Below are positions 22,693 to 41,183 of a stretch of DNA of 64,000 bases, piece by piece. The stretch lies in the sequence record PZ445134.1. One strand, written 5' to 3'. The stretch comes from a phage. Position 1 is the first letter of the stretch; each line of letters starts with the position of its first letter. The position numbers and the translations under genes are program-made. Under the pieces are notes generated by a model. It had not been told where the DNA came from. It did not search any database and worked only from the letters and a program-made list of their open reading frames with translations.

Positions 22693-22896
22693 CCGATTAT
22701 GTTTTAAATGTTGATAAAGTTCTTCAACTTGTTTAGGGTCCAAAACAATTAAGTCATTTTCTTGGCGAAGGTAAATCCATCCCTTATCCCCAGGACCATT
22801 TTTACAAAACATCACCACCGTATCATCATCTTCAGCGCTTTCAGGTAAAAGTTCAAGTACACCGTCTTCAGATTTTCCAGTATAATCGTAAAGCAT
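22690..22896 (-). CDS. hypothetical protein
   Basis: track ORF trimmed to internal Met with SD TGAGGA. Confidence 0.4.
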   Translation of the reverse strand: MLYDYTGKSEDGVLELLPESAEDDDTVVMFCKNGPGDKGWIYLRQENDLIVLDPKQVEELYQHLKHNR

Positions 22897-22903
22897 AATG
22901 TCC

Positions 22904-23083
22904 TCACATAATCTCGTTAACATACATTTGCAATTCGGTGTGGGCATCTGCCATCTTTTTCATAGCTCTGTTAATGTCGATGTCTCCATCTTCGCAACCA
23001 TGAGCATTTTCCCAATCGGATACAGCGTTAGCGTACTCTTCAATCAAAAACATTAACTTAGAAATTTTTTCTTTACGTGACAT
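22904..23083 (-). CDS. hypothetical protein
   Basis: track ORF begins at TTG; ATG at 23081-23083 with SD GAGGAG preferred. Confidence 0.4.
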   Translation of the reverse strand: MSRKEKISKLMFLIEEYANAVSDWENAHGCEDGDIDINRAMKKMADAHTELQMYVNEIM

Positions 23084-23104: not shown

Positions 23105-23140
23105 AGGTCTACTATAACACAACCTGAGGAGAAGTAAACT
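23105..23140 (-). promoter_or_regulatory. early promoter (PeSL-like)
   Basis: minus strand GTTTAC, 17 bp, TATAGT; inverted CTCCTC/GAGGAG arms. Confidence 0.5.
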
Positions 23141-23149
23141 GCTAAATGC

Positions 23150-23177
23150 AAAAAAGCCCCAACCTTTCGGAAGGGGC
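23150..23177 (-). terminator. rho-independent terminator (copy 1 of 3 identical)
   Basis: minus strand GCCCCTTCCGAAAGGTTGGGGC with GAAA loop, followed by T5-6. Confidence 0.65.
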
Positions 23178-23182
23178 TTTGA

Positions 23183-23740
23183 TTAGTTTTTGTAATATCG
23201 TAAAGGGTTGATATGGAATGAAAGCATTGCGCGTGGAATAGGACGACTCAAAAGACTCTTAAGTTTCCAACCACAGTAAACACGCAGATAAAATGTAATA
23301 CCACCAACCTTAAGATAAGGTATAGCAGCGAATAATCCCCATGCCGACTCGTTCCAAACTAAAAGATATCCATGATGTGCCGGATCAGGAGATCCAGATT
23401 TAGTTTCGGCGTTGCCTTTATAGTGCCATTCTGATGAAGCTTCGCGACCTAAAACATGATACGAAAAATTATATGCTTTGTTGCGCCATAGCCAAGCTAC
23501 GCGTTGAGCATATTTACCTATAACAGGAATTTTACGTATTTTAGACCAACGTTCAACATGGCCGCGGTCACCATCGATAGGATTATCGTAAGTCATCATC
23601 CAGTCAAAGCCATAAGGTAGTTTACCGGTTTTTTCACTATGGAATGGAACTACAAATGGTGCTAGAATAATTGCTAAAATCGCTGCGATCCAATCTATAG
23701 GAACAAGAACAACCCAACTTATGTATTTTAAAAATTTCAT
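23183..23740 (-). CDS. membrane protein, unknown function
   Basis: 185 aa; N-terminal hydrophobic helix WVVLVPIDWIAAILAIILAPFVV; gene bracketed by identical terminator copies. Confidence 0.5.
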   Translation of the reverse strand: MKFLKYISWVVLVPIDWIAAILAIILAPFVVPFHSEKTGKLPYGFDWMMTYDNPIDGDRGHVERWSKIRKIPVIGKYAQRVAWLWRNKAYNFSYHVLGREASSEWHYKGNAETKSGSPDPAHHGYLLVWNESAWGLFAAIPYLKVGGITFYLRVYCGWKLKSLLSRPIPRAMLSFHINPLRYYKN

Positions 23741-23772
23741 ATATCCTCTCTTAGTTTACAAGGATATTTATA

Positions 23773-23800
23773 CAAAAAGCCCCAACCTTTCGGAAGGGGC
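23773..23800 (-). terminator. rho-independent terminator (copy 2 of 3 identical)
   Basis: same 27-nt element aaaaagccccaacctttcggaaggggc; after rI stop. Confidence 0.65.
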
Positions 23801-23807
23801 AGGTAAA

Positions 23808-24110
23808 TTAGATAGATTTAGGCTCTAATTTTATTTTCATGAACTCTGCAAATTGTCTGGCAGTTTTTATGCCTTGTTCATGACATTCAAATGCATCATC
23901 ACAGGGGCTATTTTTGTAATGCTTTGCCATATACTTATAAAATTTTTCAGAATTCTCAACATTTTGAATTTCGAACAAAGTATATACGTTTTTAATCCCT
24001 GATTCCATAAAGTTGTCAAAGTACGGGTCGACATATGCAGTGCCAACTATAGGAGTTGTTGCTGCAAAAAACCCCAGCATCGCCACGATGGCTATCGCTC
24101 TTAAGGCCAT
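23808..24110 (-). CDS. rI: lysis inhibition regulator RI (antiholin)
   Basis: 100 aa; signal/anchor N-terminus and ...DPYFDNFMESGI... resembling T4 RI as recalled; adjacent to tk. Confidence 0.7.
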   Translation of the reverse strand: MALRAIAIVAMLGFFAATTPIVGTAYVDPYFDNFMESGIKNVYTLFEIQNVENSEKFYKYMAKHYKNSPCDDAFECHEQGIKTARQFAEFMKIKLEPKSI

Positions 24111-24335: not shown

Positions 24336-24362
24336 ATATACCTCTTGGTTAGATATTAGTAT

Positions 24363-24944
24363 TTATAACAACCCTGTCAAATCATTCCAATGCTTCCGGC
24401 ATAATGACACATATCTATCAGTATCACCAATTTCAATTTGACTGCCATCTGTAATTGGAAGTCCGTCTTCCGTGACTCTAGCTACCATTGTGGCCTTTTT
24501 ACCACAATGACAGACACCTTTAAGTTCAACAAGCTTATCGGCAATAGCCATTAATGCTTGAGAACCTTCAAATAGATTACCTTTAAAATCTGTTCGTAGT
24601 CCATATGCCATTACCGGCACATTGTATACGTCAACAATACGACTAAGTTGATACACCTTTTCAGTAGTTAAGAACTGAGCTTCGTCAACAAATACACAAT
24701 GAATATCCTTTTGTGCTGCGGCCCATTTATAGAATTCAAAGATATCCATGTCTTTTGTAATTATATTGGCGTCCTGACGAATACCAATGCGAGAAACGAC
24801 TTCACAGACAGAATCGCGAGTATCAATAGCAGGCTTAAGAACTAATACACCCATTCCGCGTTCTTTATAATTATGCGCAGCAGTCAAAAGAGAAGCAGAT
24901 TTTCCAGCATTCATTGCTGCATAAGTAAAAATTAAACTCGCCAT
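24363..24944 (-). CDS. tk: thymidine kinase
   Basis: 193 aa; P-loop AMNAGKS; C-terminal zinc ligands CHCG...CRKHW. Confidence 0.9.
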   Translation of the reverse strand: MASLIFTYAAMNAGKSASLLTAAHNYKERGMGVLVLKPAIDTRDSVCEVVSRIGIRQDANIITKDMDIFEFYKWAAAQKDIHCVFVDEAQFLTTEKVYQLSRIVDVYNVPVMAYGLRTDFKGNLFEGSQALMAIADKLVELKGVCHCGKKATMVARVTEDGLPITDGSQIEIGDTDRYVSLCRKHWNDLTGLL

Positions 24945-38855: not shown

Positions 38856-39188
38856 TTAATTTTTCCAACTTAACAACTTGTAGTGTCCTTCATTAATACG
38901 TGGTTTATCCCAAGAAATACTAATATATGATTCACTGTCAATAGAAGTCGCCGGGTTTTTCTCTACCGTAAGACCTTCACTTTCCAGCCATTCAATAGTA
39001 TTTGCGCATAAATCAGAAGAACACCTCATCGGAAACCGGCAAGATTTTTCACCTTTAGCTGCAGTGTTATACATCTTTTCTAAAATACGCTTTTGCACGT
39101 TTTTAAAAATAGTTTCAGCAGATTCTTCAGATTTTTTATTCAGTTCAGTATAAAGACTCATAACATTCTTCTCATTAATAGGGCTCAT
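38856..39188 (-). CDS. hypothetical protein
   Basis: 110 aa ORF. Confidence 0.45.
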   Translation of the reverse strand: MSPINEKNVMSLYTELNKKSEESAETIFKNVQKRILEKMYNTAAKGEKSCRFPMRCSSDLCANTIEWLESEGLTVEKNPATSIDSESYISISWDKPRINEGHYKLLSWKN

Positions 39189-39218
39189 AATATCTCAATC
39201 ATAAGCACATGTAAACAA

Positions 39219-39494
39219 TTATTTCATATTATTGAAATAATCTTCAGCGATTTCGTCATTATCATGGTAAACTTTGGTAGACGATTTGGCGTAACCTTCA
39301 GCTGAGAACATATTAATCACAACCTTTATAGTATACCACTGTCCGTCTTCGTTACCCATTACTGCGTAAGTTTCAAACATCGGATGGTCAGGTCCAATAA
39401 CTTTAATATCATTCACCGTACGTCCGAAATCTTCTGGAACGCATTTCATAAAGAAGTTGAACATTTCGCCGTAATTATCCATTTCATTCTCCAA
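39219..39494 (-). CDS. hypothetical protein
   Basis: 91 aa ORF. Confidence 0.45.
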   Translation of the reverse strand: MENEMDNYGEMFNFFMKCVPEDFGRTVNDIKVIGPDHPMFETYAVMGNEDGQWYTIKVVINMFSAEGYAKSSTKVYHDNDEIAEDYFNNMK

Positions 39495-39517
39495 GTTTTT
39501 TCTGTATCGGTAGTTGA

Positions 39518-39556
39518 TAGTTGTATAGTACCACGGAAGAACAGGGATGTAAACAG
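39518..39556 (-). promoter_or_regulatory. early promoter
   Basis: minus strand GTTTAC, 17 bp, TACTAT. Confidence 0.5.
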
Positions 39557-39677
39557 TTTTGTGAAAAAATTTTTAAAAGTTTTTTTGGGAATTCTAGGGC
39601 AAGGAGAGGCAATTAAAGGATAGGATATTGTATTATAAAGGGAAGAAACTAAATGATGCCTAGAGAGGTCCAGAAAG

Positions 39678-39705
39678 GCCTAGATACTAAAAAGCCCCAA
39701 CCTTT
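39678..39705 (-). terminator. rho-independent terminator (copy 3 of 3 identical), downstream of tRNA region
   Basis: same 27-nt element aaaaagccccaacctttcggaaggggc. Confidence 0.65.
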
Positions 39706-39766
39706 CGGAAGGGGCTAAGCCTTGCGGCAACCTTGTCGGGGTTCCACCTACTAGGTAAGTGTTTGT

Positions 39767-39858
39767 ACGAAACGCCGGGATTCGAACCCGGTTATTAAGC
39801 AGTTGACGCTACTCAATATTTTTAAAAGGCCGTATCTCGGCCATATCCGAACGTTCCG
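39767..39858 (-). ncRNA. tRNA-like element (T-arm plus acceptor-like stem), possible small stable RNA
   Basis: minus strand CCGGG-TTCGAAT-CCCGG T-arm followed by CGTTTCG, which pairs with CGGAACG 85 nt upstream; no clean cloverleaf found by hand; no CCA. Confidence 0.3.
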
Positions 39859-40097
39859 TCAAAAACGCTACTCGGCTTACGGCAAAGATATTTCCTCGAA
39901 TCGATAATTCTGTGCGCCGTTTCTGCTGTGATGTAAGGGGATATTAACAAATCGTAAAGATTTATTAAGACCAGTCCTTACGCAGGGAACATCAGTCCGA
40001 CGACTTACCGGTAGCGACCCGGTTTCTTGTTTGGTGCGCCGGTGAATGCTGGTAATCAGTCTTCATACGACGGCTTGACTATATAATAGTCTTCATT

Positions 40098-40172
40098 TGG
40101 TATCCCGCCCTGGGATCGAACCAGGACCGCAAACTTAGAAGGATCGTATGCTATCCATTACACCAGCGGGAT
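40098..40172 (-). tRNA. tRNA-Arg (anticodon TCT)
   Basis: hand-folded cloverleaf: acceptor ATCCCGC/GCGGGAT, D-loop AATGGATA, anticodon loop CTTCTAA, T-arm CCTGG-TTCGATC-CCAGG, encoded CCA. Confidence 0.7.
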
Positions 40173-40177
40173 GTAGT

Positions 40178-40254
40178 TGGTGACCCCGACCAGATTTGAA
40201 CTGGTAACCTTTCCCTTATGAGGGGACTGCTGCTAACCATTGAGCTACAGGGCC
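40178..40254 (-). tRNA. tRNA with anticodon CAT (Met or Ile2-type), atypical D-arm
   Basis: acceptor GGCCCTG/CGGGGTC with two G-U pairs, anticodon loop CTCATAA, T-arm ACCAG-TTCAAAT-CTGGT, encoded CCA; D-stem pairs poorly. Confidence 0.5.
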
Positions 40255-40316
40255 TAAATAACTTTCTATTATGAAAGGCACTTTAGAGCACCTTTGGTAA
40301 TAGAGGGTATGAATTA

Positions 40317-40343
40317 ATAATAACACATAATTCTTAAAGCAAA
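40317..40343 (-). promoter_or_regulatory. candidate MotA-dependent middle promoter for the tRNA cluster
   Basis: minus strand TTTGCTTTA MotA box, 12 nt, TATTAT; about 55 nt upstream of tRNA at 40254. Confidence 0.4.
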
Positions 40344-40350
40344 TTACGTT

Positions 40351-40641
40351 TTACCGTACCATATTAATGTAATTATATTCAATGCAACGTAATTTCAAAG
40401 GATTCTTGAAAATATCATATTCAAGAGGGCCTTTTTCTGTTTCAATAAAGAAATCAAAGTTAACTGTGTTAAATTTATCATCTTCATAGAGTAATTTAAC
40501 CTGTGAAGACGAACGGTCGATGTAAACCTTTTCAACTTCAAAATTAGTCAAAATACCATAGTCATCGACTAGTGCTTTAGCTGCACGTTGATCACTTTCG
40601 TATCCATTCTCGACAGATTTTACTTTAGCATAAAGAATCAT
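40351..40641 (-). CDS. hypothetical protein
   Basis: 96 aa ORF. Confidence 0.45.
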   Translation of the reverse strand: MILYAKVKSVENGYESDQRAAKALVDDYGILTNFEVEKVYIDRSSSQVKLLYEDDKFNTVNFDFFIETEKGPLEYDIFKNPLKLRCIEYNYINMVR

Positions 40642-40997
40642 GAGTGTTCCACCACTTCAAAAGTATGTGCACTGACAATCTGGTACCAGTCAAAATTTTC
40701 TTCAGCATTTTTGTAGATTTCACGAAGAGCTTCAACAGTTTTTCCTGTAGCAACAAGATCGTCAATACCGCCAAGAGGATAACAGTCACCAGCAAACAGA
40801 AGGAAATTAATAGTTTCTGTAGGTTCTGGATGCAGAACACCGTTATCGTCTACCACTTCAAAGAAAGTGTAAGAAGGAGTACAAGTTTTAATCCAAGCCC
40901 ACGCTTGAGCCGCTGAATCAAATGGTCTGCGTATCAAACGACAATCAGGGTCTTTAGAAGGATTTGCTTCAAAATCCGCATATACATGATATTTCAT
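40638..40997 (-). CDS. hypothetical protein
   Basis: 119 aa ORF. Confidence 0.45.
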   Translation of the reverse strand: MKYHVYADFEANPSKDPDCRLIRRPFDSAAQAWAWIKTCTPSYTFFEVVDDNGVLHPEPTETINFLLFAGDCYPLGGIDDLVATGKTVEALREIYKNAEENFDWYQIVSAHTFEVVEHS

Positions 40998-41183
40998 TTA
41001 CTCACCTTTTGCAATTTTATCCATAACGATAGCGATTAAGCCTATTAGAAATGCTACTACCAACGAGATAGAATTTTCTGTTGTTGTCAGTAGTCCACAA
41101 ATGAATCCTACAAACATCGAAAAACTAAAAGCCATTGAAGCAATTACTACAGCAACATTACGAATCAGTTCAGCGCGTTTCAT
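40998..41183 (-). CDS. small membrane protein
   Basis: 61 aa, one hydrophobic helix. Confidence 0.4.
   Translation of the reverse strand: MKRAELIRNVAVVIASMAFSFSMFVGFICGLLTTTENSISLVVAFLIGLIAIVMDKIAKGE

Follow-up and report, generated by a model that had tools for sequence, protein, structure and literature searches.

Why should a virulent phage carry one membrane-protein gene between two identical copies of a transcription terminator, and does that arrangement record how the gene came and went? The gene in question lies in a 64,000-nucleotide (nt) stretch of DNA (the window; sequence record PZ445134.1) from a Mosigvirus, an RB69-like phage of the T4 type whose sequence at this locus is 96-98% identical to that of many Mosigvirus genomes. 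An earlier note, made from the letters alone, had described a 27-nt element occurring three times, with two of its copies flanking a 185-amino acid (aa) membrane-protein gene beside rI, and had read the arrangement as a cassette inserted by recombination between terminator copies. The three copies are indeed identical, although the coordinates given for them were off by 1 nt for the first two and by about 10 nt for the third (placed at 39678-39705), and the open reading frame (ORF) at 23183-23740 on the minus strand does lie between two of them, with rI as the next gene upstream. The gene belongs to the family DUF7338, and we consider it probable (roughly 0.75) that the cassette has been gained and lost at the rI/mobD.2a site by homologous recombination between copies of the hairpin that terminates the tRNA/rnaD/rnaC operon. 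The elements on which this reading depends are as follows.

23151..23177, minus strand: terminator copy 1 (hairpin 23156-23177, U-run 23151-23155), an exact 27-mer, -18.9 kcal/mol, forming the downstream cassette boundary
23183..23740, minus strand: the DUF7338 cassette gene, 185 aa, the ORF between terminator copies 1 and 2
23774..23800, minus strand: terminator copy 2, an exact 27-mer, -15.1 kcal/mol, predicted to end the rI.1-rI transcript and forming the upstream cassette boundary
39689..39715, minus strand: terminator copy 3, an exact 27-mer, predicted to end the tRNA-Met/tRNA-Arg/rnaD/rnaC transcription unit

The presence and absence of the gene among close relatives bears most directly on this question. 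A 1801-nt query spanning the locus matched about 156 records at an identity of at least 90%. It was covered over its whole length in 23 Mosigvirus records, which puts carriers at about 15%; among the cassette-less records listed (about 130 others at the same identity, RB69 included), the match came in two segments with a joint span of 1178 nt. The shorter locus lacks 623 nt, exactly one repeat period, and the empty sites that were aligned or read (RB69, NHEP10, and L012) consist of the left flank, one hairpin, and the right flank. In cassette-less RB69, NHEP10, SQ17, F27, and mobillu, rI and mobD.2a are adjacent with one terminator between them. The breakpoints of presence and absence thus fall in the repeats, one terminator being kept at the empty site, and the cassette reading of the earlier note is supported. 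Both hairpin copies were present in all ten of the Mosigvirus carriers examined (the window included), two of which have loop variants in copy 2. The opposite case, a gene that stands without flanking repeats, had been named as one that would speak against a cassette; it is absent from these carriers but does occur in other genera, where the gene is accompanied by one copy (RZ) or none (STP4-a).

The variant hairpins of individual carriers bear on how the two copies interact. In PTE-Eco05, copy 1 has the usual TTTC loop and copy 2 has the loop ATAA (plus strand), a form shared with the solitary rI hairpin of two non-carriers; this chimera is exactly what one would predict from a crossover in the left arm of the hairpin. 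AV109 has a one-base loop variant in copy 2. In PTK, identity between the copies runs beyond the hairpin as far as an ATTAG microhomology, a tract that indicates a likely gene-conversion footprint between them. A search of IMG/VR with rI returned three Mosigvirus loci only, too few for a census. The longer locus of TH58 (L055) was considered as a second cassette and rejected, as its unrelated difference of ~340 nt lies ~400 nt to the left (window ~22731-22804); this extra or replaced sequence falls in the small-ORF region left of mobD.2a and has no relation to the hairpins.

Divergence within the cassette and within its flanks gives a second line of evidence. Carriers and non-carriers are not separated by their flank haplotypes. 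In the first 400 nt of the right flank, three carriers have a non-carrier as their nearest relative: the window is closest to SQ17, FL18 to F27, and NHEP29 to NHEP10. In most carrier pairs compared, the cassette is diverged by 0.3-0.8%, as against 2-4.5% for the right (rI-tk) flank (Fisher p 3e-7 to 0.02). The window and PTE-Eco05, for instance, have 2/596 differences in the cassette and 47/1100 in the flank, and the corresponding figures for PTE-Eco05 and AV109 are 2/596 and 24/1100. The cassette of ESh27, on the other hand, is diverged by 3%, as much as the ESh27 flanks, and the low divergence elsewhere is therefore a matter of recency and not of constraint. One cassette lineage appears to have spread recently across backgrounds that had already diverged, and there appears to be a second, older lineage. 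On the right side, most other carriers begin to differ from the window at 23801, the base next to copy 2. Both gain or transfer and loss seem to occur, with the hairpin as the junction at least on the rI side.

What kind of element is it that provides these junctions? The 27-mer AAAAAGCCCCAACCTTTCGGAAGGGGC has exactly three exact copies in the window, all on the plus strand as written; no further site was found in the 64 kb with up to 3 mismatches, and no match was found in 100 dinucleotide shuffles of the window (0/100). Copies 1 and 2 form an exact 27-nt direct repeat with a spacing of 623 nt and no longer repeat surrounding it. The element reads as a terminator on the minus strand, which is the coding strand here, and not on the plus strand. 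Its minus-strand fold, GCCCC-UU-CC GAAA GG-UU-GGGGC followed by U5-6, comprises five G-C pairs, a 2x2 U-U internal loop, two more G-C pairs, and a GAAA loop, at -15.1 to -18.9 kcal/mol, with fold z-scores of -3.7 for copy 1, -2.9 for copy 2, and -1.05 for copy 3 in its own context. The hairpins are located 7 nt past the rI stop codon, 5 nt past that of DUF7338, and ~50 nt past the rnaC homolog. A GC-rich hairpin with a U-run, placed at the ends of transcription units, marks the 27-nt element as a predicted intrinsic (Rho-independent) terminator, and its T4-type ortholog carries the annotation 'terminator' in some records. A simple terminator scan of the window missed the element because of the internal U-U loop.

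Identical repeats of this kind would mean little if they were simply the terminator found after most operons, an objection that the earlier note had itself raised. The hairpin does not serve the phage as its standard terminator, for it occurs only 1-3 times per ~170-kb genome, and the other terminator-like hairpins of the window differ from it; a search of 5,426 complete E. coli genomes for a possible host source gave no match. The hairpin matched 23 stretches in IMG/VR, with a maximum of three per contig, and 1129 places in 779 records of the phage collection. Its forms differ between genera. The T4-type stem (RB7) is fully paired over 9 bp, GCCCCGACC GAAA GGUUGGGGC, with GA where the window has UU, and the Dhakavirus hairpin, GGCCC...GGGCC as against GCCCC...GGGGC in the window, differs by a compensatory C-G to G-C change and is found at three loci in Dhakavirus genomes. 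The UU-mismatched version is the one copied to several loci in Mosigvirus and Dhakavirus (RB7 L035 ~1285-1306 compared with window 39694-39715). Farther afield, the 22-nt core with its tandem U-U mismatch is present in a terminator-like setting in contigs L007/L021, L011/L018, L015, and L025, whose flanks are unlike those of the T4-type loci described here; in some of these contigs the core has a stem lengthened by extra G-C pairs, and core matches also occur in Pseudomonas, Aeromonas, and Klebsiella phage records of the phage collection. Horizontal spread or convergence may account for the core in unrelated contigs.

The third copy directs attention to the tRNA locus. Copy 3 lies just downstream of tRNA-Met and tRNA-Arg (40098-40254) and of the rnaD/rnaC homologs, and window 39603-40035 aligns at 92% with a region of RB7 annotated as rnaC and rnaD. 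The rnaC/rnaD homologs themselves extend over 39767-40031 (minus strand), between tRNA-Arg and copy 3. An Rfam scan of 39000-41000 returned only the two tRNAs and no family for the hairpin or the rnaC/rnaD homologs, the latter being missed because Rfam has no family for rnaC/rnaD. Copy 3 is the positional and sequence ortholog of the T4 terminator downstream of rnaC (species 1 RNA), with 20/22 hairpin nt and the same flanks; the two differ in that the T4-type stem is fully paired (GA opposite UU), whereas the window version has the tandem U-U mismatch and is the one copied to a second locus. In other genera, DUF7338 itself is located just downstream of the tRNA/rnaC region and, except in STP4-a, directly behind this terminator, in the following arrangements.

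JS98 (Dhakavirus), after the tRNA/rnaC region: rnaC, hairpin, TATAAATA, DUF7338, hairpin, TATAAATA, ORF135, so that two modules of hairpin and late-promoter motif flank the gene
WG01 and the closest homolog found (P0002, 78% aa identity): two hairpins flanking two genes, ORF139/157 and, after another terminator, DUF7338, an order permuted relative to JS98
RZ and VR20, after the tRNA/rnaC region: the exact 27-mer upstream of DUF7338 only
STP4-a, after the tRNA/rnaC region: DUF7338 just downstream of the tRNA genes, hairpin absent

L052 resembles WG01, with ORF139/157 followed by DUF7338. In the Mosigvirus LF82-7, the tRNA locus reads hairpin, TATAAATA, and a 208-aa ORF that is 69% identical in aa sequence to ORF135 of JS98, and deleting DUF7338 between the two hairpins of JS98 would give this very arrangement. 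The slot after the tRNA-locus hairpin holds different genes in different genomes, the window having nothing between the hairpin and e.8, and homology between the window and other genomes at this locus breaks inside copy 3, at query positions 485-499. As judged from these alignments, the slot (window 39200-39715) is a mosaic whose breakpoint is marked by the hairpin. On the e.8 side, left of copy 3, T4-type genomes of the genus Tequatrovirus match the window at 90-93% identity, and the other Mosigviruses sampled match the tRNA locus only from the hairpin rightwards. In the Escherichia phage fDHCT2 (L031), a remnant of the DUF7338 3' end survives at 1856-1995, where it adjoins a hairpin of the GGCCC type after a 154-aa ORF; a deletion in which the hairpins took no part has apparently destroyed the gene.

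Linkage to tRNA genes extends beyond the T4-type phages. In the DUF7338 neighbourhood set (loci L050, L051, and L056-L133), a tRNA gene lies on the same strand at most 2 kb from the homolog in 50 of 78 IMG/VR loci, and in all 46 of those with a homolog of at least 50% identity. Each of the close homologs examined has its place within a tRNA cluster or directly after one, with at least two phage families represented, and in Felixounavirus the gene is inside the tRNA array. The Mosigvirus position beside rI is an exception to this linkage, which argues that the rI position is derived. At the rI site of T4 and JS98 one finds rI.-1, followed by a different, UUCG-loop hairpin and an early promoter, so that only Mosigvirus has a hairpin of the rnaC type behind rI. 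Most likely, the cassette came to rI from the tRNA locus and either brought the hairpin along or made use of it. We also note that the Mosigvirus contig L093 (IMGVR_UViG_2706795553) has no cassette at rI and has a divergent DUF7338 homolog (57% aa identity) in a 13-tRNA array elsewhere, and that some homologs from 237-kb jumbo phages (33% identity) also adjoin tRNAs.

At the rI site, the order in the direction of transcription is tk, rI.1, rI, hairpin copy 2, TATAAATA, Shine-Dalgarno sequence, DUF7338 gene, hairpin copy 1, an early-promoter-like site, and mobD.2a. The features that surround the gene and its terminators are these.

24363-24944, minus strand: tk, upstream of rI.1 and rI
23808..24110, minus strand: rI antiholin (lysis-inhibition; Pfam Antiholin 4e-24, phrog_1246), the upstream neighbour
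23765..23772, minus strand: TATAAATA late-promoter motif, the predicted cassette promoter, directly after copy 2 and 24 nt upstream of the ATG
23745..23748, minus strand: Shine-Dalgarno sequence GAGG, read from the sequence, 4 nt upstream of the cassette-gene ATG
23111..23138, minus strand: early-promoter-like TTTACT-16 nt-TATAGT, with TG, from a promoter scan, directly after copy 1
22904..23083, minus strand: mobD.2a-like gene (Pfam DUF7438; annotated mobD.2a in RB69), the downstream neighbour

The start of mobD.2a was taken from the 180-nt annotation of its relatives, and the rI translation is 96-98% identical to rI of RB69 and other Mosigvirus loci. The whole locus is in the part of the genome between tk/rI and the nrdC.11 region, in which T4, JS98, and RB69 differ in the genes that they have. 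Copy 2 is followed by the late-type TATAAATA and not by an early sigma-70-like promoter. As the motif is no more frequent in the window than chance would have it (8 found, 9 expected), the late-promoter call rests on position and cross-genus conservation: the order terminator, TATAAAT(A/C), leader, and ATG is also found upstream of DUF7338 in JS98, VR20 (L008), L029, and RZ, although the genes are only ~72% identical in nt sequence, and the window leader (hairpin, TTTTTGTATAAATA, GTAAACTAA, Shine-Dalgarno sequence, ATG) is homologous to that of JS98. The 623-bp unit of terminator, late promoter, Shine-Dalgarno sequence, and DUF7338 gene would be an autonomous late transcription cassette, of presumed promoter activity, set in an early-gene region. 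At its other end, copy 1 and the early-promoter-like site are predicted to form a terminator/early-promoter module of the promoter-early stem-loop (PeSL) type that restarts transcription into mobD.2a. The same early-promoter-like sequence comes after the single terminator in RB69 and NHEP10, and T4 and JS98 have an analogous hairpin and GTTTAC/ATTTAC...TACTAT module at the equivalent site; no promoter consensus was seen after copy 3 in the window. A second TATAAATA is located at 24360-24367 (minus strand), immediately behind tk and 25 nt upstream of rI.1; as a late promoter it could plausibly serve rI.1-rI, and the transcript would then run as far as hairpin copy 2.

In the course of events that we propose, the cassette would have originated at the tRNA locus and been excised by recombination of hairpin with hairpin, either as a mini-circle, as in the PeSL model, or through an equivalent exchange in co-infection. 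It would then have gone back into a genome at the rI terminator or, alternatively, have come to that site together with both hairpins; since that time the reverse event would have removed it more than once, and it would have been handed on from one Mosigvirus background to another. The original event may have been an insertion, for which an rI terminator was already in place, or the arrival of the gene with both terminators and a series of later deletions. Once in place, the upstream hairpin would stop rI transcripts and TATAAATA would drive DUF7338 late in infection, while the downstream hairpin would stop the DUF7338 transcript and the adjoining early promoter would restart transcription of mobD.2a. 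A transposon or integrase was considered and rejected: there is no such gene in the unit, and the 27-nt repeat is a pre-existing regulatory element and not a target-site duplication.

A number of observations weigh against recombination between hairpin copies. The support is wholly comparative, no mini-circle or recombination event having been observed, and a single lineage, that of the LF82-n isolates, supplies 12 of the 23 records with the cassette, so that the independent carriers number only about a dozen. The late-promoter call is based on a motif that is not enriched in the window. On the left, the tract of low divergence is not sharply ended at copy 1, the differences beginning 70-200 nt beyond it in most comparisons, and homologous recombination in flanks that are 97% identical could move the cassette between backgrounds without any part played by the hairpins. 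No donor was identified, the nearest homologs elsewhere being 72% identical in nt and 75-78% in aa sequence; the DUF7338 lineage of the cassette was found at the tRNA locus in none of the sequenced Mosigvirus examined, and the first arrival of an rnaC-type hairpin behind rI is not explained. Singer and colleagues, in 1982, reportedly found homologous recombination in T4 to be efficient only from roughly 50 bp. A repeat of 27 bp is short by that measure, and the events would therefore be rare or assisted.

The origin of the rI hairpin would be accounted for if the cassette had entered a Mosigvirus ancestor just once, with both hairpins and in place of rI.-1, by illegitimate recombination, and if insertion targeted to a hairpin had never occurred. 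The single hairpin behind rI in RB69-type genomes would then be a 'solo-terminator' scar of repeat-mediated deletions. Such a history explains why the rnaC-type hairpin is found behind rI solely in Mosigvirus, as against rI.-1 and the other hairpin in T4 and JS98; it calls on the easier reaction, direct-repeat deletion; and it allows both loop variants of the solo hairpin to be derived from a carrier like PTE-Eco05. The divergence of the ESh27 cassette, as great as that of its flanks, also makes the cassette old in the genus. Loss alone is nevertheless insufficient for near-identical cassettes (0.3-0.8%) on flanks diverged by 2-4.5%, which require later horizontal spread, and carriers are the minority (23 of ~156 records at the 90% threshold); we give this history an appreciable but minor chance. 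An active mechanism, in which a phage or host nuclease (cruciform, structure-specific, or homing-type encoded elsewhere) cuts the palindrome and break-induced repair moves the cassette, would suit a repeat that at 27 bp is short for efficient T4 recombination, as well as the retention of a 22-nt core with a tandem U-U mismatch (A-A in DNA) in three loci, several genera, and unrelated phage contigs, the last of which hints at a role other than termination. There is, however, no nuclease, integrase, or transposase gene in or beside the cassette, and the T4-type ortholog of the hairpin has a perfectly paired stem; this mechanism we consider very improbable.

One might also suppose that the hairpins are bystanders, mere terminators that each transcription unit needs, and that the cassette moves only by ordinary homologous recombination in the ~97%-identical flanks, the 623-nt difference being a single historical indel. 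T4-type phages do recombine very frequently, the flank haplotypes are heavily reshuffled, and the extension of the left low-divergence tract 70-200 nt past copy 1 is what such exchange could leave. We think this unlikely in view of how closely other breaks follow the hairpin: to the right of copy 2, the window departs from most other carriers at the very next base, the hairpins of PTE-Eco05 and AV109 are chimeric or variant, the PTK conversion tract is anchored on the hairpin, and the hairpin is likewise the point where homology breaks at the tRNA locus and the boundary of the permuted Dhakavirus gene orders (DUF7338-ORF135 in JS98; ORF139/157-DUF7338 in WG01/L052). Identity over 27/27 nt, two conserved U-U mismatches included, is also unlike what independent terminators have. 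Recombination between copies of the tRNA-operon hairpin remains the reading that we prefer. A wider version of it, in which the hairpin, as a late-promoter relative of the promoter-early stem-loops, would be a portable recombination site for late-promoter circles passing between loci and T4-type genera and DUF7338 would be functionally tied to phage tRNA arrays, is speculative, and we rate it as rather unlikely.

The locus has much in common with the PeSL / PmSL elements, the promoter-early stem-loops of T4-type phages (Arbiol et al. 2010, PMC2839356; Comeau et al. 2014, PMC4122927). In the model of these two papers, recombination between direct stem-loop copies excises an ORF and leaves one chimeric element, and the circle may insert elsewhere. 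Here, too, short modules of terminator stem-loop and promoter lie in a hyperplastic early region, direct copies flank a single small ORF, the ORF is precisely present or absent in close relatives with one chimeric element left behind, and mini-circle excision and integration can be proposed. Copy 1 with its TTTACT...TATAGT roughly fits the PST/T4 PeSL promoter consensus, TTTACW-N17-TAYWAT, apart from one mismatched base in the -10 and a 16-nt spacer. The differences are that the shared sequence here is the hairpin and U-run only (27 nt, exact) and does not include a promoter; that it is one specific tRNA/rnaC terminator, present 1-3 times per genome, as opposed to a loose consensus in dozens of copies; that the cassette has changed locus, by about 16 kb; and that the promoter motif on it is of the late type (TATAAATA). 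Arbiol et al. 2010 (PMC2839356) nowhere use the term 'late promoter', and the relevant portions of Comeau et al. 2014 (PMC4122927) describe early and middle versions only.

A second comparison is with a class of accessory gene units that carry their own signals. The locus has an extra gene, of accessory function, with its own predicted promoter and terminator, between rI and mobD.2a, which are adjacent in RB69. Morons, in the concept of Hendrix and Juhala, are autonomous promoter-gene-terminator units of tailed phages, located between genes that are adjacent in relatives; the classical examples are those of temperate phages, where expression takes place from the prophage. The DUF7338 cassette differs from them in belonging to a virulent phage, in being apparently expressed late, and in having identical flanking terminators that would give an explicit route of gain and loss. 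From what the genomes can tell, the locus is a well-resolved case of a known mechanism, either PeSL-type modular shuffling or a moron-like cassette, and not a new mechanism; what it would add as its own are homology restricted to one specific terminator, a late promoter on the cassette, and a jump between loci.

For the study of virulent T4-type phages, the value of the locus is that of an unusually clean natural example of the trade in accessory genes: one gene, with exact boundaries, polymorphic within a genus. It comes with near-isogenic pairs of carrier and non-carrier (NHEP29/NHEP10, FL18/F27, and the window/SQ17) and with a traceable origin at another locus. Together, these boundaries, pairs, and origin make the PeSL mini-circle model, for which the support so far is detection by polymerase chain reaction in two phages, directly testable. 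The analysis also draws attention to DUF7338, a widespread membrane protein that has no structural match and is linked to tRNA clusters.

What, finally, does the cassette encode? The earlier note had credited the protein with an N-terminal transmembrane (TM) helix and with no recognised domain. The helix is borne out both by a hydropathy scan (residues ~7-33) and by an AlphaFold model (residues 9-33), but the second statement no longer holds, as the whole protein matches Pfam DUF7338 (PF24027; residues 1-184 of 185, 209 bits against a cut-off of 27, 5e-62) and phrog_2143 (4e-79), both of them families without an assigned function. In the model, which is a confident one (predicted local distance difference test, pLDDT, 93; predicted template modelling score, pTM, 0.83), the single TM helix is followed by a helical segment and a sheet of long antiparallel strands. 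A sequence profile search of the PDB gave no significant match to a solved structure, matches in BFVD were to uncharacterised phage proteins only, PADLOC gave no match to the protein, and no mention of DUF7338 was found in the literature.

Some homologs are labelled 'holin'. Holins are small proteins with 1-3 or more TM domains and a charged C-terminus that are encoded in a lysis cassette. We reject this identity for the DUF7338 protein, which has one TM helix and a folded domain of ~150 residues, has no match to a holin family in Pfam or PHROGs, and outside Mosigvirus is encoded next to tRNA genes and not lysis genes; the labels on its homologs are thus unsupported annotation. The product is probably an inner-membrane-anchored accessory protein. 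Any envelope-level role, such as exclusion or protection late in infection, is a tentative suggestion to which we attach a low likelihood, and one possibility is that DUF7338 acts as a membrane-level partner countering host defences or toxins that target tRNA. Across 31 DUF7338 homologs, three motifs are invariant: TxD..G..H..RW, WLWRN, and GWK.

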